Source: Plasmodiophora brassicae
Lineage: Eukaryota
Assembly: GCA_036867785.1 (NCBI GenBank)
Contig: CP145417.1
Location: 806,001 to 870,000 of the forward strand
DNA: 64,000 bases
Direction: 5' to 3'
Shown here: piece after piece, positions 36,556 through 47,448 of the stretch
Layout: every line of letters starts with the position of its first letter
Numbering within the stretch: position 1 is the first letter of the stretch
The notes under the pieces: generated by a model
What the model saw: the letters and a program-made list of their open reading frames with translations, nothing else
Told to the model about the DNA's origin: nothing
Databases searched by the model: none
Made by a program: the position numbers and the translations under genes

Positions 36556-37159
36556 CGGATGCGACCAATGAGTCTTGATCATTAAATCTATACCGCATGT
36601 GGCCATCTAACGAATTCTTTTCCAGAGCGCGCTGGTCATCTGTAATCTCGATTAGTCGTTATATATTGCGATTGCCGTCCGAAATGCAATCGCCCCAACT
36701 ATCAACCGTCGCCACGCATTTTTTTCGCGATTGTTGGTGCCCAACTATCGCGAGCGCGCTTGCTCGGCTGGTTTGACTTGAAACCTGTAGCTTCCAGAAG
36801 ATATAGGGACGGGATGTGGCAATCTTTCAGTCAAGCAGGTAGAGAAGATACGTAGCGGCGATTCTGATCAATTAAACGGAGCTCGAGAAACAACCGTCTT
36901 CGCAATCGTGTCCTGTTCGGTAGTGGTTGACCTGAGACTAGTTGTTATACCTGATTTGGATTGCACGAGCGCGTGATTCAAGCAGTTCGAAGCGCTTAGG
37001 AAAGTGAAAGTCCCCAGTGTATCTAACGTGGGGGAAGCCGACGTCCCCATGACGTCGCACACACAGTGGCACGGTCGCCACTGTGCACCAGTTGCGTCAC
37101 GTCGTCGTGACTCATGGGTCGGCCACTGTCGCTAGCCTTCCCATTATGAATCAGCCGCC

Positions 37160-37815
37160 CTAAGGCGCCAGCGACAGGTCCACCCGACCCATCCCGGCCG
37201 CCCTCTTCATGACCTCCACAGGTTCACGAGTGGTCGGCTTGGTGAGCGCGTCCGCCGGATTGTTCTTTGACGCCACGCGCTCGAACCGGAGCAGTCCCTC
37301 CTGGACGCACTCTCGCACATAGTGCCATTTCACCCGAATGTGCTTGTTCCGGTCCGTGACCCCGAGCGTCTTCACCATCTGCTCGGCAGCCGTGTTGTCC
37401 TCCAGCACAATCGACGGGTCCGTCAGAGTGAACCCGATGTCGGTGAGGAGCATCCGGACCCACACTACTTCACGCGCCAGCTCGCTGGCCGCCACGTACT
37501 CCGCGTGCGCTGAGGAGGTCGCCACCAGGCTTTGCTGCTTCGATCGCCAGCTCACAGCTGCGTCCATCAGCGTGACGATGAATCCCGTGACCGACTTGGA
37601 TGTGTCCGGGTCCATCGCAAAGTCCGAGTCGACCGCCGCCCGGGGCTCCGACTCCTTCACGTTGTCTTTGTTCAGTGCCATCGGGTCGAATTCAGTCGCC
37701 GGTGTCTTGCTCTTCGCGTAGATGATGCCGACATCCGTGTTGTTCTGGACATATCGCAGCACGTGGAGCATCGCCTCGAAATGCTCCCGACCCGGGTTGT
37801 TCAGGGACGCCTTGA
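37160..37815 (-). pseudogene. Copia RT C-terminal stub plus RNase H, out of frame with the integrase
   Basis: PGREHFEAMLHVLRY, VDSDFA, VSWRSKQQSLVATSSAHAEY, EDNTAA, KHIRVKWHYVRE, NPADALTK; no YVDD core. Confidence 0.9.
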
Positions 37816-39185
37816 GCAGCAGGTCCTCGATCCCCGCCGCCCTGAGCTGCTTGCTCATCGCGTCCGTCATGCCGGTCTTCACCGGCACCTGCGAGTTCCC
37901 TGGCACGGTCGTCCCCGCCGCCGCCTCGCTGAATGGCGCGGCCATCCTGGCCGCCGCCCTGTTGTTGACCGACGCGACCTTCTCGATCGCCGTCGTCTTG
38001 TCGTGCGACGCGATCGTCCCGACCGCCGTCGTCTTCTTGCCCATGACGATCGTCTTGACCGCCATCGCCGCCTCCTTGCAGCTGGGCTTGCGCCGTCTCT
38101 TGGCGCTTGCGGGTCTCCTCTCCGCGGGAGCCGCTGTCATCCTTGAACGGGAATTCGTTGGGGAAGAAGACCACGTCCGAAGACTCGATCATCTTGCGGC
38201 TGTGCCACAGCAGCAGCCGGTACGCCTTCTTGTCGATGCACACCCCCATGTGGACCGCGCGCTCGGCCCTGGCGTCCAGCTTGCACTTCTTTTGCCGCCG
38301 GATCCTGACCCACGCCTCGCAACCGAATGGCATCGCCCTCGACAGGTCTGCTTGTTCCCCCGTCAGTTCCTCGATTGGCGTCGTCCGGTGGCCGTGTCGT
38401 TGGAGCGGCACGCGGTTGGCTACCCACGTCTGATGCCGCCCGTTCTCGGTCCAGTACTTGCGCGGGACGCCTGACTGGACACGAGCTGCGCGCATCATCT
38501 TGACAATCTTGCCACCGAACGTCTCCGCGAGACCGTTCTGGTGCGGGCGGTCCGTGTCGCTGAACTCCTGTGCGATTCCCCGCTCGCGCAGCAGCTTCGC
38601 CAGGCGCGTCGAGGTGAACTCGCCGCCCTGGTCGGCGCGGAACGTGTCGACGCGTGTGCCGCCCATGACCTCGAGCCGGGTCAGCACGTCCATGACGACT
38701 TGCTCCTGGTCACCCTTATTTGCCAGGTTGACCGTGGCACCGACACCAGTCGCGTGGTCAACGTAGCACGCCATGTACGTCTTTCCGTCATGCGACCTGG
38801 TGTCGAACGTCTGCAGGTCCGCCCCGACGATCTGCAGCTTCGAGAGCACCGTCCGTGTCCGTCTCCGCGGGATCGCCGTTCGGTTGAGGTTGGCCTCGAT
38901 GCACACCTTGCACCTGGGCACCTCGTCGCTCGCCAGGTCGGCCTCGTCGATGTTGAGACCGGTGATTGCCCCGTTCTTGACTGCCTTTCTGATCGTGATC
39001 GTGGACAGGTGGCCGCACCTCGCGTGCGCCTCCGCCAATGATATCGTTCTGTCGCGCTTTACGTCCGCGGGCTTGCGCGTTTCCTTCTTCTCGGCCGGCT
39101 CCTCCTTGCTCGGGCTCTTGTTTTCTGGCTGGTTTGGATGATCGTGATCGGGGGCGGCCAGCGCCACCCCCGCTACTCGAAATCC
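37692..39185 (-). CDS. Copia integrase ORF in the -1 frame relative to gag-PR
   Basis: HARCGH...CKVC zinc domain; GADLQ, RADQGGEF, PHQNGLAE core; KLDARA and SSDVVFFPNEFPF. Confidence 0.9.
   Translation of the reverse strand, partial: GFRVAGVALAAPDHDHPNQPENKSPSKEEPAEKKETRKPADVKRDRTISLAEAHARCGHLSTITIRKAVKNGAITGLNIDEADLASDEVPRCKVCIEANLNRTAIPRRRTRTVLSKLQIVGADLQTFDTRSHDGKTYMACYVDHATGVGATVNLANKGDQEQVVMDVLTRLEVMGGTRVDTFRADQGGEFTSTRLAKLLRERGIAQEFSDTDRPHQNGLAETFGGKIVKMMRAARVQSGVPRKYWTENGRHQTWVANRVPLQRHGHRTTPIEELTGEQADLSRAMPFGCEAWVRIRRQKKCKLDARAERAVHMGVCIDKKAYRLLLWHSRKMIESSDVVFFPNEFPFKDDSGSRGEETRKRQETAQAQLQGGGDGGQDDRHGQEDDGGRDDRVARQDDGDREGRVGQQQGGGQDGRAIQRGGGGDDRARELAGAGEDRHDGRDEQAAQGGGDRGPAAQGVPEQPGSGAFRGDAPRAAICPEQHGCRHHLREEQDTGD
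39149..39185 (-). promoter_or_regulatory. Putative -1 programmed ribosomal frameshift signal
   Basis: G_GAT_TTC (39185-39179), 6-nt spacer GAGTAG, 10-bp stem CGGGGGTGGC/GCCGCCCCCG with GCTG loop. Confidence 0.8.
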
Positions 39186-40642
39186 TGGACCTTGTGCAGA
39201 TCCAGGTAGTACAGGCCCTTGCGGACCGTACTGGTCACGATCGTCCTTCCGGCCCCGTCCAGGAGCCGGGCTGAGCGCGTCTGCTCATGGTGCTCCGCGC
39301 CCGTCTTGCCGTCCTTGCCGAGCTGCAGGAGTGCCGAACGCACCGCGAAGATGTTCGCGGATGCATCTGGCGCGTACGCGACGTTTGTCAGCGTGATCGA
39401 CTTGCCGTTAGCCAGCTTGAGGCGGACGTTGCCCCTGGCATGGACCTTGATTCGCTGCGGGCCGATGCCGCCGATCGTCGGCCGGTCCTTGTCGGCGATG
39501 AAGTCCAGCTCCTCGAAGTGCGCCTTGTGGGTGGACACGTGGCCGCACGTCGCCGCGTTGTCGACGATGAAGTCGCGGATGCCCTTCCGCGGCGCGTCCT
39601 CGACGCCCGCCAGGCTCGTCAGGAGCGCGATCGACGCCGAACCGCCTTCCTCTTTGCCCCCCTTCCGCTTGCCGTTCCTGGCCTTGCCGCGCTCGGCGTT
39701 GCCGGTCTTCTTGCGGCTACGGCAGTCGGCCGCCCTGTGTCCAGCCTTTCCACAGTTGAAGCACTTGCCGGAGAACCCCGTCGTCGTCATGGCCGCCGAG
39801 GAGCCGCTGTCGTCGTCGCCGCGCTCTATCGCTCCCCGCTTGTACTGAGCGAGCACTTCTGCGCGGACCTTGCTTTGCGTCAGCTCTCCGATGGGACCGC
39901 GCAGCATCGCGTTGACTAAGTCCTTGTACTCGGTGTATGGCAGCGAGATAAGGACCTTCGTCGCCATGTCCGACTCAGTCTTCGTCCGATTCGGATCCGC
40001 CCGGGCCAGGTTGATGCCCAGGTCGCGCATCGCCGTCAGGTGCGCCTTGGTCTCCGTGAGGTCGGCGCCCGCCTTAAGCTTTGTTGTTGACAGAAGAATG
40101 TCGAACATCGCCAGGTCCGTGCCCGTTTGGCCGGAATACTCCGTCTGGATGGCGCTCCACGCCAGGTCCGGACGGTCGTCGGGTATGTCGAGTATCAAGG
40201 GAAGTTCGTCTTCATGCACGTTCTTCTTGATAGCGTACATTGCGTGGAGCCTCTCTTGCTCCGACGCCGGCTCTTCGTTGTGCCCGCGCGTCGCGGGCTC
40301 CACGGCCTTTTGCAGGCCCGACTTCTTGAGCATCGTCGTCATCGACGACGCCCAGACCAGGTAATTGTCCTTGCCCTTCAGCTGGACGGAGATCTTGATG
40401 CCGGACTCCTTCAGGCCCGTCAGCCTTTCCTTCTGCGCAGCTTCCAGCCGCGCCAGACGATCCTTGAGCGCCGCGTTCTCGCGCTGGCCGGTCCCGCTCC
40501 CGGCCGCCGCTGCTTGCAGACGTTCAACCTCCGCCTCCAGCCGATCCTGCTGCCGCTGGGCCTCGGACAGCGCAGCGCTTATCTGGGCGATCACGGCCTC
40601 TGCTTGGGCCAGGTCGGCTGGGATGCTTGGGATCGTCGCCAT
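39173..40642 (-). CDS. Copia Gag-protease ORF
   Basis: LKGKDNYLVWASSM, zinc knuckle CFNCGKAGHRAADC, protease FIVDNAATCGH, LTNVAYAP. Confidence 0.92.
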   Translation of the reverse strand: MATIPSIPADLAQAEAVIAQISAALSEAQRQQDRLEAEVERLQAAAAGSGTGQRENAALKDRLARLEAAQKERLTGLKESGIKISVQLKGKDNYLVWASSMTTMLKKSGLQKAVEPATRGHNEEPASEQERLHAMYAIKKNVHEDELPLILDIPDDRPDLAWSAIQTEYSGQTGTDLAMFDILLSTTKLKAGADLTETKAHLTAMRDLGINLARADPNRTKTESDMATKVLISLPYTEYKDLVNAMLRGPIGELTQSKVRAEVLAQYKRGAIERGDDDSGSSAAMTTTGFSGKCFNCGKAGHRAADCRSRKKTGNAERGKARNGKRKGGKEEGGSASIALLTSLAGVEDAPRKGIRDFIVDNAATCGHVSTHKAHFEELDFIADKDRPTIGGIGPQRIKVHARGNVRLKLANGKSITLTNVAYAPDASANIFAVRSALLQLGKDGKTGAEHHEQTRSARLLDGAGRTIVTSTVRKGLYYLDLHKVQDFE

Positions 40643-40647
40643 CAGAG

Positions 40648-40663
40648 AGTGGGACTCTTAATC
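40648..40663 (-). promoter_or_regulatory. Primer-binding site complementary to the anticodon arm of tRNA-Lys(CTT)
   Basis: Plus-strand TGGGACTCTTAATC abuts the LTR and matches the eukaryotic tRNA-Lys(CTT) anticodon stem-loop as I recall it. Confidence 0.75.
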
Positions 40664-40957
40664 TGATTCAAGCAGTTCGAAGCGCTTAGGAAAGTGAAAG
40701 TCCCCAGTGTATCTAACGTGGGGGAAGCCGACGTCCCCATGACGTCGCACACACAGTGGCACGGTCGCCACTGTGCACCAGTTGCGTCACGTCGTCGTGA
40801 CTCATGGGTCGGCCACTGTCGCTAGCCTTCCCATTATGAATCAGCGCGAGCAGACGATGTAACGCCCGTTCAAGGTTGTAGATGTGATCTGTGGCGTCGT
40901 GCTCCCTCTTTTTCAGTTACAAAATTATTGCAAAGCGCGTAGGTGCCAGCGTTGGAG

Positions 40958-42140
40958 ATGGCGGCCGCTCATGGTGTACACGTGTCCGAAGCAATTGAAA
41001 GCCAACATGCTACAGAGAACACCAAACTGCATGCGCTGTACGCCTACTATTTCATCGGCCTCAAGCAGAATCAGATAGCCCTTTTGTATCGCAAGGCGCC
41101 ATCGACGATCGGCAGATGGATCGAGCGGTACGAGCGCACCGGTGCCGTATCCCGTAAGGCAACAGAGTCGCAGCGGAAGTACACGCCTGAACACCGCGAA
41201 TGGATAAGGGACTACTTCCTCGCCAACCCTTTGTCCTTTCTTGACGAAGCCAAGCTGGCATTCGAAATCAACTGGAAGAACGACATCAGTTTGAGCACGA
41301 TCTGGCGCATACTTCGCGAATACGGCTTTACTCGAAAGGTACGACTCGAACAGGAATGGGTTATCAGTTTCGGCTTACTGTTGAATAGCTCATTGTCCGT
41401 CGAGCCATCCAGATCAAGGAAGCAGACATCGTCCGATTCTTCGAGGAACTCAACGCTATCGACTGGACCCACTCCAGCCTGTGCTTTCTTGACGAGTTCG
41501 GCCTCGACAACCGGGACATGCTACGTCGCAAGGGTTATGCGCTTAAGGTCTGTCGACGAGTTCCCCAACGTTATCCGTATACAGGACCCTAACATGCGTT
41601 ATGCAGGGCCAGGAACTGCTCTTCAGAGGCGAATTCGTCAGAAGGCCGCGTAGCTCGTTGTTGTGCTTCATCGGATGTGATGGGTTGGAAGGCACATTTC
41701 TCACAGAGGGCACGTTCGATCGTCAGAAATTTGTCGAATGCGTCCGTGAGCATGCTCTGTCCGGCCGAGTTCAGAAGCATCCTGGGCGGCAATCGGTTTG
41801 GATCATGGATGGAGCCAGGATACATTGCCATCATACGATAGTCGAGTACCTACGGGATCTCGGCATCATTCCCATCTTCCTGCCAGCCTACTGTCCGATG
41901 TTCAACCCGATTGAGATTGTGTTCGGTCTTGTCAAGAAAAGCCTTAGGCGTTGGTATGCTGAAGGCAATGTCAAACCGAAGGACCTCCCTGTTGTAATCT
42001 TAACGGAACTCAAGAAGTTTCGGAGATATGATATGAGAGGTCTGTTCAAGAAATGTGGGTTTGGCGCAAACGGAAAGTTCAATCCAGGCGTCGCCTACAA
42101 GGACATCACCAATCGCATGACGGAGGCCGGATTCGAATAA
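40958..42140 (+). CDS. IS630/Tc1-mariner transposase (DD34E); introns 41339-41388 and 41548-41606
   Basis: HTH (IALLYRKAPSTIGRWI), FLDEFG, IMDGARIH...FLPAYCPMFNPIE with 34 residues between D and E; spliced frame intact. TIRs not found. Confidence 0.9.
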
Positions 42141-43813: not shown

Positions 43814-44821
43814 CTAATCGTCATCGCCGCTCATGACGGGATCGTCATTTCTGGCAGCCAGCAACAGCTCTTCAGCGTCGCGACGTCCCAGGGCCCAGTC
43901 CAGCGGTGCCCGGTCATGTACGTCCTTCACCCAAATAAGGACCCCTTCGACCTTCAGCAGTACGCGGATGACATCGGCCTGTCCGTCAGCAGCAGCATAG
44001 TGCAGAGGCGTCATTCCTTCCTTGTCACGAGCGTTGACGTTGATTCCGCTGACATTTAACAGCAACTCGACGATTTCGACATCTCCAGCCGATGCGGCTG
44101 CGTGCAGAGCCGTCATCCCGTCTTCGTCCTTAGCGTTAACCATCTTGGACACGTGCACCAGCAATGCTACAACGTCGACGTGTCCGCGCGACGCTGCTAT
44201 GAGCAAGGGCGTCGTTCCCGTGTAGTCGCATGCGTCGACGTTGATTCCGTTTGCCCTTATCAGTAGTGTTACGACGTCGACATGACCTTCGCTGGCGGCT
44301 GCTAGTAGTGGCGTCTTGCCGAGCTTGTCCTGTGCATTGACGTCGACCCCAGGGTCACTGAGAAGCAGAGCGACAATTTCAACGTGCCCACGTTCAGCGG
44401 CAACGCGCAAGGGCGTCATGCCATCTTCGACGTCGGGTATACGGACGTTAATTCCTGGACAGTTCAACAGCATCTCGGCAACCAGAGTCTGGTTTTCTCT
44501 TGCGGCCCAGTTCAATACGTTCCCAAGAGAATCCCATGGTTGGTCGTTGATAGCAGTGAGATCGCCGGTACCGCCAGCCCGCAGGTTGTTAAGGACTTGA
44601 TTGACAATTGCTTTCTGTGGATTGGTGCCGGCAGAACGGTAAAGGCGAGCGATACCAGGGGCGTGCAATAGGTGGCCCATGGCAGATGAGGCGCTGGCAA
44701 TGCGGTTATTCGAGCGGCGACTTGGTCTACCGGCGCCATCGGTAACGCCGTACAGAAACACGATTACAACGAAGGCCGTCGTTGCAACACGAAAGCTCGT
44801 CGGGGTGCCCATCAGATGCAT
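43814..44821 (-). CDS. Secreted ankyrin-repeat protein (candidate effector), single exon
   Basis: Signal-like FRVATTAFVVIVFLYGVTDG followed by about 7 canonical repeats (GMTPLRVAAERGHVEIVALLL). Confidence 0.88.
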   Translation of the reverse strand: MHLMGTPTSFRVATTAFVVIVFLYGVTDGAGRPSRRSNNRIASASSAMGHLLHAPGIARLYRSAGTNPQKAIVNQVLNNLRAGGTGDLTAINDQPWDSLGNVLNWAARENQTLVAEMLLNCPGINVRIPDVEDGMTPLRVAAERGHVEIVALLLSDPGVDVNAQDKLGKTPLLAAASEGHVDVVTLLIRANGINVDACDYTGTTPLLIAASRGHVDVVALLVHVSKMVNAKDEDGMTALHAAASAGDVEIVELLLNVSGINVNARDKEGMTPLHYAAADGQADVIRVLLKVEGVLIWVKDVHDRAPLDWALGRRDAEELLLAARNDDPVMSGDDD

Positions 44822-47448
44822 CTCTGTATCGGACGTTCCTCTTGTCTGAACGCTGCTCAGCTCGTCGTTTCCGTCAGATACTACAATGCAATCCTGGAAG
44901 ACAAACCGCGCCGGAAAATCTGACGCGCAGTCGCGGAGTTTCCACTGCGAGCACAACAGATGGCCAGTATTTCGTTGCACAACAGTTATCGTTCCTTCCA
45001 AAGTAATCGTGGATGTTTCAGAATCAATTCCTTGTGCAACACAATATTCAGATTGACATTGAGCAATCTCGGAAACGGTATAGGCCAGACAAACTCGTGA
45101 CCTGGTGCGGTCGACACAGGCAGCATATCGGCTACAGCGGGGCTATGTACAATTCTGCGGAGGAGCGACAAATCGGCTACATCAGAGCATCCCCAACCCG
45201 TAGCTATTTCCCTAGCTATAGTCAAAATTTAGCTAGAAAACAGCCCCACCCGGGCTAGCTATCGCTATATTTTCCGGGTTGACCGACAATTAACGCCAAC
45301 TCGAGACTGTTGTGATCCAGTTTGTCGACCTCGTCTGAATCTCCAAACGTAAATCGACTTCCGGTCTGGGTGCGGAACAATCGGCATATCCAGCCCTGAC
45401 AAAGTGCTGGGTAAATAACCCAATGACGACAATAACCTGGTGCTGTTCTCCTACCGGTTCCTCGCTGTCGCCGACATCACTTGGAACGCTTGTACGATGT
45501 TACGCGCAAATCAGATTGTCGCTGATAACGCGCGTTTCACGTAGTGCATCCATCGCTCCACGAAAGCAGTTCCAGGCACTCTGCCTGGCACAAGCCGTCA
45601 ACACAATGAGAGCACTCGTATGTAGTATTTTCCTACTGAAATGGTTTTCATGGTCGCTGGTCCGCATCCCAGCGAGCGCGGCACGAAATTTCAGAGCGAT
45701 ATTGTCAAGGGCATACATATATAACAGGGGTGGCAAACGTTGAATAGCCCTTGTGAGGAAAAGGCTGCCACTTTAGCCAGTTCCATATAATCATATCCCT
45801 GAGATGACGTCAGAAAACTGGCAGACGCGCTCAAGCAGCGATGAGTACCTCTGGACGTGGAGAAGACGCGTCCACTTTGGGAACCTATCGGACGCGTCCC
45901 CGAAGGAACCGCAAACTTGATGCCAATGTTGTGGTCCACGCCTTGTAACCTGAAGAATGGATATTCAAATTCTTACAATCTGAAGAGGGATAAAGCATAT
46001 CAAACCGGTGAAAAAGATGCTTCAGAACACTCGGCATGGCATTCACCAGCATCGGGCGGAAGGGCTTCCCCGACATCAAGATCGACAGTGGACAGGTTGC
46101 ATTCAGCGTCATGCGTACGGTAACATGCATCTTAACGGCCTCTGCTGATGCATGGTCGGAGCCATACGACTTATCAGAAACAGATGAATCGGAATCCTCA
46201 TGCGTATGATCGACGACAGAAGAGCTGACGATGATGGGCATTGGAGACGATGGACGAGTGCTGTTCGATGGTGGAATCTGACTATAAGACGAACTGGCCG
46301 CATCAGTGCGTGCAGCCTTCCTGGCACGAAGAAGACGAGGCAGCGAGGCGACACACGGTGCGGCAAGTGAGAGGAAGCCGCCGAAACAGGCGAACCGCGT
46401 ACACTACGCGTATCAGTGGCAGACCGCACGCGTAGACGGGAAATTGTTTCTCTTCCCGCGGGATGACACCCCCGATTGATCCCGCGGGACGAAAAGGACG
46501 TACTTTTTCATCCCGCGGGATCACATCCCGCGGGATGAAACGTCATATTGATCCCGCGGGGCGAAGCGGCATTTCCCGCGGGACGAATCTATAGGTTCAT
46601 CCCGCGGACGAAAAGCCAGCGTGTCGTGCTCAGGAAGGAGTAGTTGGTGCGTCGGGTACAGGACGGAGCCAGTCTCACTCGACGGTCAGCTGTTTGACCT
46701 AGCGGGCTCATTCTTTCCGTCAGGAACAATAGACTTAACAATTACGCCAGAACAAATGCAACCGCCAGCCGCGGGTGGAGGATGGAGCCGGTCTCCCGGT
46801 CTCGCTCGACGGGCAGCTGTTTGTCAACGGCGACTAACGCAGATCTTCACTGGTGCTCATTCGCTATATCATGAACAATAAACTTTAAGGCGGTGTTGCA
46901 ACTTTACTATTTGTTATCGAGGTAGAAATCGGCGTGCAAAAACCAGTACATCCAGCGCAACCTCATGACGTCCATGCACGACGACTTGAACGTTACCGGA
47001 AGGCTTCTGGCAAGAGCTTCCGCCATTGTCAAAACAAGCATGCCGCAATTGCAATCGTCCAATTGGCGCGGTCCCGCCAAGACTCTCGTCTCGAAAGGCT
47101 TGGCAGGAAACGCCGAAGTCGCCCAGGGCATGATGGCATTGGTCGCGATGGATCGCAGACGAGCGGTGTAGGTTGGATCGCAAAGACTGTCGTACAGGTA
47201 CACCAGCCCCAAGGCAGCGTCGACGACGACCAGACACCAATGCACATTGAAGAACTAGGTACCATGAAACCAGCAGTGAGCAAAACCCGTAAGTCAACAG
47301 CAGAATGGATTGGACTTACGTTGACTGGACAAAGGAACATCGTTGCGCTCGAGTCACATTCGGCGATGACTCCCCACCTGCCGTGGTCGTTCATCTCGAC
47401 TTTGCACGGCGCCACGTGCGTGCTGTCCTTTGAAATCAGAGTCATTGC

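Follow-up and report, generated by a model that had tools for sequence, protein, structure and literature searches.

The 64-kb stretch of Plasmodiophora brassicae DNA analysed here (contig CP145417.1; hereafter the window) carries on its minus strand a Copia-type long terminal repeat (LTR) retrotransposon of 3870 nt (36974-40843), in which Gag and protease (PR) share one open reading frame (ORF) and integrase (IN) lies in another. From sequence comparisons we consider it probable, at roughly 0.78, that the cassette between these two frames (39149-39185) is a conserved programmed -1 ribosomal frameshift (-1 PRF) signal of a distinct Ty1/copia clade with the organization Gag-PR / -1 / IN-reverse transcriptase (RT)-RNase H (RH). 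The Gag-PR frame is open from 40657 to 39176 on the minus strand, and from its ATG at 40642 it encodes ORF1, a Gag-protease of 489 aa (39173..40642) that ends in TAG at 39175-39173 and is identical to the protein P0157. The second frame, offset by -1, is open from 39284 to 37695 and encodes PGFRVAGVALAAP and then integrase. Counted from the slip site, the -1-frame ORF (37692..39185, minus strand) comprises a linker, integrase (zinc finger, rve, SH3), an acidic/Gly-rich linker and an out-of-frame tail. Pfam recognised zf-CCHC and Pol_BBD in ORF1, together with Retrotran_gag_2 at 24.8 bits, below the 27-bit cut-off, which is exceeded in relatives (by P0158 with 54.9 bits and by P0159 with 34.1 bits), and in ORF2 gag_pre-integrs (weak), rve and SH3_retrovirus. 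The ORFs and domains confirm the layout proposed in a first-pass annotation made from the letters of the window, namely Gag and protease in one ORF ending at this TAG and integrase in the -1 frame.

The junction RNA reads CAG GAU UUC GAG UAG, followed immediately by CGGGGGUGGC-GCUG-GCCGCCCCCG. The proposed -1 slip site G_GAU_UUC (39179..39185, minus strand, as are all parts of the cassette) would place GAU in the P site and UUC in the A site, and the spacer GAGUAG (39173..39178) consists of the sense codon GAG and the ORF1 stop codon UAG. The candidate stimulatory hairpin (39149..39172) has a predicted 10-bp stem and 4-nt loop with a folding energy of -24.3 kcal/mol and is made of the 5' arm CGGGGGUGGC (39172-39163), the loop GCUG (39162-39159) and the 3' arm GCCGCCCCCG (39158-39149). 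The heptamer, the 6-nt spacer and the 10-bp hairpin are all found on the minus strand where the first-pass annotation had placed them. The 81-nt junction context folds at -35 kcal/mol, compared with -22.9 +/- 3.2 kcal/mol in 200 shuffles (z = -3.78; 0/200 as good). The hairpin is the most stable 36-nt segment of the element, its -24.3 kcal/mol being reached by 11 of 3835 segments, all 11 of which overlap the junction. CAGGATTTY occurs a single time in the element, and the heptamer by itself is unremarkable because GGATTTY occurs 11 times on both strands of the window. What goes beyond chance is the combination of heptamer, frame offset, stop and hairpin, recurring in relatives.

DNA relatives were sought in metagenomes, in which 299 pattern matches yielded four confirmed relatives (L001-L004) with integrases 34-61% identical, all including the junction; scans of genome contigs and viral contigs gave 256 and 148 pattern matches, none of them confirmed. 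In all five junctions, that of the window and those of L001-L004, protease ends in QDF-x-stop and integrase lies in the -1 frame. CAGGAUUU is invariant in 5/5 and the next base is U or C, giving GGAUUUU in four junctions and GGAUUUC in the window. The codon after the heptamer varies (GAG, GUC, UGC, CAG and CGU in the window and L001 to L004), as does the identity of the stop (UAG, UAA, UAA, UGA, UGA), the position of which is fixed 3 nt past the heptamer in every case. A hairpin of 7-11 bp with a loop of 3-6 nt, predicted at -16 to -26 kcal/mol, starts 5-7 nt after the heptamer in 5/5 junctions, and it ranks first in stability among all 36-nt segments of the window element, of L003 and of L004. 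Stem covariation, which the first-pass annotation had put forward for checking, takes the form of arms that differ in sequence with pairing kept, at modest statistics from five sequences. That annotation had also named PR and IN in one frame in autonomous copies as one observation that would speak against a frameshift; the window and its relatives instead keep the -1 offset, heptamer, stop and hairpin in 5/5.

Two further features point to the heptamer as the place of any shift. The two ORFs overlap by 112, 112, 79, 16 and 16 nt in the window, L001, L002, L003 and L004, and in L003 and L004 a -1-frame stop immediately precedes the GGA codon, so that the 16-nt overlap contains the heptamer and any shift is therefore confined to it. 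Codon use at the junction is GAT in 5/5 and TTT in 4/5, compared with GAT for 35 of 117 Asp and TTT for 4 of 34 Phe elsewhere in the same ORFs; the wobble bases needed for slippage are kept against codon preference. A covariance model of the junction found only these five sites in the 69 kb searched.

Several other candidate structures and identities were tried and rejected. For a pseudoknot, the hairpin loops of the window and L001 have perfect 4-nt complements downstream, which shuffles equalled or exceeded in 617 and 303 of 2000 cases, and in L002-L004 the loop pairing downstream was no better than in shuffles. The 'Conserved Hairpin Site' of GalEa was rejected as the identity of the hairpin, because the GalEa site sits at the primer-binding site (PBS) position, outside the coding region. 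An Rfam scan of the element gave no family at E <= 1. As a separate observation, L002 has a second strong hairpin at its positions 272-315 (36-nt segments down to -18.9 kcal/mol), about 45 nt upstream of the heptamer, a region that is no outlier in the other four sequences.

To place the frame break among Copia proteins, the integrase was used as a query, which returned 20436 proteins at E <= 0.001, the best 150 of which were examined. Among the matches listed, the closest long ones are P0002, P0005, P0006 and P0007 (42-50% identity, BLASTP), and P0152, a member of the cluster of P0001, is 59% identical to the window integrase. These five proteins of 932-1069 aa start just upstream of integrase and carry rve, SH3_retrovirus and RVT_2 in Copia order. 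A total of 151 proteins were compared and 20 with fewer than 220 integrase residues were dropped; among the 131 kept, an upstream fusion of 250 residues or more is present in 81, another 11 begin at integrase and have 300 or more residues after it, and 39 are uninformative. In a maximum likelihood integrase tree, computed from 132 rows by a quick search under LG+G4, a clade (SH-like approximate likelihood ratio test, SH-aLRT, 100) unites the window with its seven nearest rows and holds five proteins starting at IN, two fragments and no fused Gag-PR; outside it, 81 of 124 rows carry at least 250 aa fused upstream. The N-termini of the six outside rows that start at IN were read individually, and five of them retain a C-terminal protease segment in the IN frame, for which reason we take these five as truncated single-ORF proteins, P0124 being ambiguous. 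The PR-IN frame break is specific to this clade.

The first ORF of the clade is represented by P0158 and P0159, the only Gag-PR relatives found, which are 41-42% identical and end in ...QDFQ and ...QDFA, compared with ...QDFE in the window. On the other side of the break, P0008 (63% identical) reads NPGFSVRGLAPAAP across the junction in the integrase frame. The -1 PRF proposed in the first-pass annotation is accordingly supported by 5/5 junctions, by 2/2 further Gag-PR ends and by a clade without fused forms. A search for longer proteins gave no fused Gag-PR polyprotein among 8000 candidates, which is weak evidence, and a profile search with the Gag-PR alignment returned the same three proteins and nothing further. 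Gene callers split such elements into two unrelated-looking 'hypothetical proteins'.

The window copy has itself lost its RT. No RT domain was found in it by Pfam, and an RVT_2-type RT, present in relatives, is missing from this copy; where the first-pass annotation suggested a Gag-PR-IN-(RT) product, the window copy encodes no RT. Its IN-frame product aligns with P0152 residues 26-355 (56% identity), and a C-terminal RT-connection/RNase H remnant (37160..37807, minus strand, stop TAG 37162-37160) is 54% identical to P0152 residues 784-989. The counterpart of P0152 residues ~356-783 is missing, RVT_2 of P0152 being residues 484-716, and it is because of this internal deletion that the remnant is back in the Gag frame. 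The deletion junction coincides with a 7-nt repeat (37799..37805, minus strand), where ~1256 nt of other copies are missing; the out-of-frame tail of the -1 ORF begins after it and stops at 37694-37692. In public sequencing runs, record 9 of the DNA run X12 (2009 nt) matches 37799-38012 at record positions 1-214 and 37260-37805 at 1464-2009, so that this contig holds 1256 extra bases between two copies of the 7-nt repeat, and the deleted junction was seen in none of three runs covering 37799-37805. Since 1256 mod 3 = 2, the remnant would fall in the IN frame of the longer form, and longer family members should be Gag-PR / -1 / IN-RT-RH elements of about 5.13 kb.

The same runs bear on the frameshift junction. 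Over 37799-40361, a 2997-nt contig of X1 and a 2820-nt contig of X4 show 0 differences from the window, beyond which they continue into sequence that it lacks; therefore, the RT-bearing form shares the identical junction. The junction is spanned, without a gap or a differing letter, by X12 record 11, X1 record 3 and X4 record 21, and no indel or joint was found at it in any of the four runs compared with the element. The run X20, a true RNA library, contributed two 151-nt integrase pieces at depth 3, its coverage lying outside the junction. With the offset recurring in L001-L004 and the RT-bearing contigs carrying the same junction, the private indel that the first-pass annotation had listed as an alternative is largely refuted. 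One joint in X12 leaves out 3875 nt, the combined length of the element (3870) and of one 5-nt copy of its target-site duplication, and represents the empty site. Because of this empty site, the identical LTRs and the target-site duplication, the insertion is recent and polymorphic: the window copy is a recently inserted, polymorphic, RT-deleted, non-autonomous member of the signal-carrying family. Its RT was probably lost by template switching at the 7-nt repeat, possibly during reverse transcription. The copy looks 'dead-on-arrival' and could still make Gag-PR and, via shifting, Gag-PR-IN with a junk tail. A separate observation in these contigs is a 54-nt joint inside gag (40358-40411), with GT..AG on the plus strand, antisense to the element, which is present in X1 and X4 and absent from the DNA run X12; splicing of an antisense transcript may account for it, or else a variant copy from which 54 nt have been deleted in frame.

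We propose the following course of events at the junction. Most ribosomes would translate Gag-PR and terminate two codons past the Asp codon of the heptamer. A minority would pause when GAU occupies the P site with tRNA-Asp and UUY the A site with tRNA-Phe, held by the GC-rich hairpin 5-7 nt downstream, which would resist unwinding with the stop codon at its foot, and would slip one base back to GGA_UUU. The adjacent stop codon probably helps shifting. The predicted product reads ...VQDF/RVAGVAL... into integrase and, in full-length copies, on into RT-RNase H. Both the slippage and its efficiency are inferred; abundant Gag-PR and rare Gag-PR-IN-RT would follow, with Gag-PR in high excess over Pol, as it is in alpharetroviruses. 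In alpharetrovirus gag(PR)-pol, protease lies upstream of the -1 site.

The closest known counterpart of the signal is in pea enation mosaic virus 2 (PEMV2), an umbravirus. At its p33/p94 site, as described in PMC4737148, G GAU UUU lies 3 nt upstream of the stop in an experimentally validated -1 PRF signal, and a hairpin with a G:C-rich base begins ~5 nt after the heptamer. According to the same account, mutation of the U run brings frameshifting to background and blocked P-site re-pairing leaves 36-40%, removal of the stop lowers frameshifting more than 3-fold, and a conserved upstream hairpin dampens it (PMC4737148). The Copia clade shares with this site the heptamer (in 4/5 junctions, the window having GGAUUUC), the one sense codon, the stop 3 nt downstream (in 5/5 junctions) and the hairpin. 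The two differ in that the PEMV2 stimulator is described as an 88-95-nt bulged hairpin needing a long-distance 3' interaction, whereas the hairpins of the clade have 7-11 bp and 3-6-nt loops, for which comparison with the downstream sequence gave neither a pseudoknot nor a long-range partner, and in that PEMV2 is a plant RNA virus making its RNA-dependent RNA polymerase whereas the element makes IN-RT-RH. The resemblance is convergent, with no sequence homology. In position, the break resembles retroviral -1 sites after protease, such as those of beta- and deltaretrovirus pro-pol, HTLV-1 (PMC7075266) among them, where likewise the signal is a slip heptamer with a downstream structure and protease, encoded ahead of it, is made above the downstream enzymes; Retroviridae, however, have the pol order RT-RH-IN and different heptamers, compared with IN-RT-RH and an RVT_2-type RT in the Copia clade.

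Within LTR retrotransposons, the family agrees with known Ty1/copia members in PR, IN, RVT_2 RT and RNase H, in a Gag of Copia type (above the Pfam cut-off in P0158 and P0159, below it in the window copy), in its 5-bp target-site duplication and in needing more Gag than Pol. The Copia strategies set out in PMC5580714 are +1 PRF in Ty1 and Ty4, stop read-through in Tca2, splicing in Drosophila copia, BARE and EVD, and a single ORF in plant lineages, and the passages on Copia in the review of Atkins et al. 2016 likewise give +1 shifting, read-through, splicing or a single ORF. The 16 plant Copia lineages tabulated by Neumann et al. 2019 (PMC6317226, Additional file 5) have a single ORF or a GAG/PROT break and none has a PROT/INT break; the statement in the first-pass annotation that Copia recoding usually precedes the protease agrees with that table and with PMC5580714. 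Ty1 shifts +1 before PR, whereas the break in the clade is -1 and after PR. A first ORF ending after protease, with the other enzymes in a second ORF, is shared with Ogre (intron) and Retand (stop codon), which belong to a different superfamily, Ty3/gypsy, and are the only lineages with a GAG-PROT / rest division among those tabulated (PMC6317226). Full-text literature searches turned up no Copia element described as having a -1 site that separates protease from integrase, and the Gao et al. 2003 survey and Repbase may hold one; a known mechanism at this position and with this signal type is apparently unreported for the Copia superfamily.

A number of points weigh against a programmed -1 shift at this junction. 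The support for shifting is wholly comparative, and the DNA junctions compared number only five. The heptamer departs from the canonical X_XXY_YYZ pattern, as G_GAU_UUY re-pairs fully at the A-site codon only, and GGAUUUA is regarded as a mutated, inactive site in PMC2805616 (elsewhere it has been proposed as a totivirus slip site). Stronger structures exist elsewhere in two relatives, the junction hairpin coming within the top 22 of 1023 segments in L001 and, in L002, within the top 9 of 1591. Covariation speaks for the signal, within limits: of the cells in the model-fitted alignment 76% are paired, a share that 7/500 shuffles reach (66.6 +/- 3.9), both sides have changed in 4 of 10 pairs, and the covariation score is 0.31 compared with 0.146 (1/500 shuffles; all slid controls lower). 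These figures are modest and are not probabilities, as they come from five related sequences. Because the alignment imposes a 10-bp/4-nt geometry and places L001 and L002 in the wrong register, its pair counts understate pairing and the per-sequence folds are the better description. L001, L002 and L003 carry further frame breaks elsewhere and are probably decayed or error-bearing copies. Among the proteins, P0009 follows the +1 frame over the junction (...CRILSKGAAGGP...) and only then joins integrase, and the part of P0001 upstream of integrase is an unrelated N-terminus; the two probably represent copies whose PR-IN linker carries additional indels. The conservation of the QDF and GF residues could partly reflect protein constraint. 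Finally, an open IN-RT-RH frame in the master copy is a deduction from length arithmetic, and the runs X1 and X4 are guessed to be RNA.

Three other explanations of the junction were weighed. The one that survives best, unlikely as we consider it, is that ORF2 is reached by termination-reinitiation, internal entry or a subgenomic RNA, the hairpin serving packaging or dimerisation, a folding pause for Gag-PR or 3'-end formation. The placement of the hairpin exactly at the ORF1 stop and the non-canonical heptamer would fit such a role, and a sirevirus gag-pol junction is described as having a conserved 11-bp stem whose function is left unresolved (PMC5009743). Set against this, the -1 frame of L003 and L004 opens just 3 nt before the heptamer with no AUG there, GF in the -1 frame across the heptamer runs into continuous ORF2 coding in 5/5 junctions, conservation against codon bias is seen at wobble positions that slippage alone would require, and the same architecture constitutes the proven -1 PRF site described for PEMV2. 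Splicing, in which a short intron over the junction would remove the stop and join PR to IN in some transcripts, is less plausible still. It has a precedent in the Ty3/gypsy element Ogre, where an intron is reported to join GAG-PROT to RT-RH-INT (PMC6317226); the host appears to have short introns, given the 54-nt GT..AG joint elsewhere in the element, and a GT dinucleotide occurs in the spacer of 4/5 junctions. However, the L002 spacer is without GT, the frame overlap in L003 and L004 is only 16 nt, and what has been conserved is a slip heptamer with a hairpin rather than splice sites; moreover, the four runs contain no joint at the junction, though the 54-nt joint was detected in the same contigs, which is weak evidence as contigs may drop rare isoforms. 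Almost no weight goes to an inactivating indel, private or inherited, in a copy or lineage that is dead, with a coincidental heptamer and hairpin. The defective, RT-deleted window copy and the other frame breaks in L001-L003 might be taken to point to it, but it is already largely refuted, since offset, heptamer, stop position and hairpin recur in 5/5 at 34-61% protein identity with differing stops and stems, the ORFs flanking the junction are still recognisable and conserved, the break is clade-specific, and the family is young and mobile, to judge from its identical LTRs, its target-site duplication and the empty site in X12.

The remaining parts of the element are those of a Copia retrotransposon. 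The 5' LTR (40664..40843) and the 3' LTR (36974..37153), both on the minus strand, are 180 nt long and run from TG to CA, their ends having been read from the sequence; the direct repeat itself is 182 nt long and 100% identical, two flanking bases matching by chance. The target-site duplication reads CGCGC on the element strand, with its 5' copy at 40844..40848 and the same five bases beside the 3' LTR at 36969..36973. Directly after the 5' LTR lies a PBS-like sequence of presumed function (40651..40663, minus strand) that contains ATTAAGAGTC and agrees at 10/11 bases with the PBS of FunCo1, a fungal Copia clade whose PBS is described as the complement of an internal tRNA-Lys gene segment (PMC5445492, Donnart et al. 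2017). The domain order of the window copy, Gag, PR, IN and RH remnant, is the Copia order, with IN before the position of RT, and no second copy of the element was found in the window. The protease motif in ORF1 is FIVDNAATCGH (~39560-39575), with D-N-A-A-T also in P0158 and P0159 and D-N-A-A-P in L004, so that the D-N-A active-site motif is kept in 4/4 clade members covering that region. Copia and retroviral aspartic proteases usually carry D-(S/T)-G.

Two neighbouring features were noted. At 43817-45142 on the minus strand, an ORF of 442 aa contains many ankyrin repeats (Ank_2, 224.8 bits); a clubroot pangenome preprint, which describes 55 complete assemblies, contains the statement that ankyrin-repeat effector loci adjoin LTR-rich regions. 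At 40943-42140 on the plus strand, 100 nt from the 5' LTR of the Copia element, a Tc1/mariner-type transposase extends over two overlapping ORFs (HTH_23/HTH_32, then DDE_3) and is either a frameshifted copy or interrupted by an unrecognised intron.

Setting the Gag:Pol ratio is a defining part of LTR retroelement biology. Copia elements have been thought to keep protease on the Pol side always, by a single ORF, splicing, +1 shifting or read-through. If -1 PRF is true, a conserved -1 signal after protease would mean that the retroviral design of 'protease at Gag levels' evolved in Copia too. With less assurance than for the signal itself, we lean towards regarding the clade as the first recognised Pseudoviridae lineage with -1 shifting after protease, its alpharetrovirus-like layout and umbravirus-type signal reached independently, widespread among microbial eukaryotes from the environment and at present mobile in a protist that infects plants; the stoichiometric PR with its unusual D-N-A motif would hint at a changed assembly role. 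The non-canonical heptamer is otherwise documented in plant umbraviruses, and the clade would offer compact (~45 nt), naturally varied hairpin stimulators for the study of A-site-only slippage. Annotation pipelines may mistake such copies for frameshifted pseudogenes. How this young, polymorphic family is expressed therefore bears on ongoing host genome variation driven by transposable elements.

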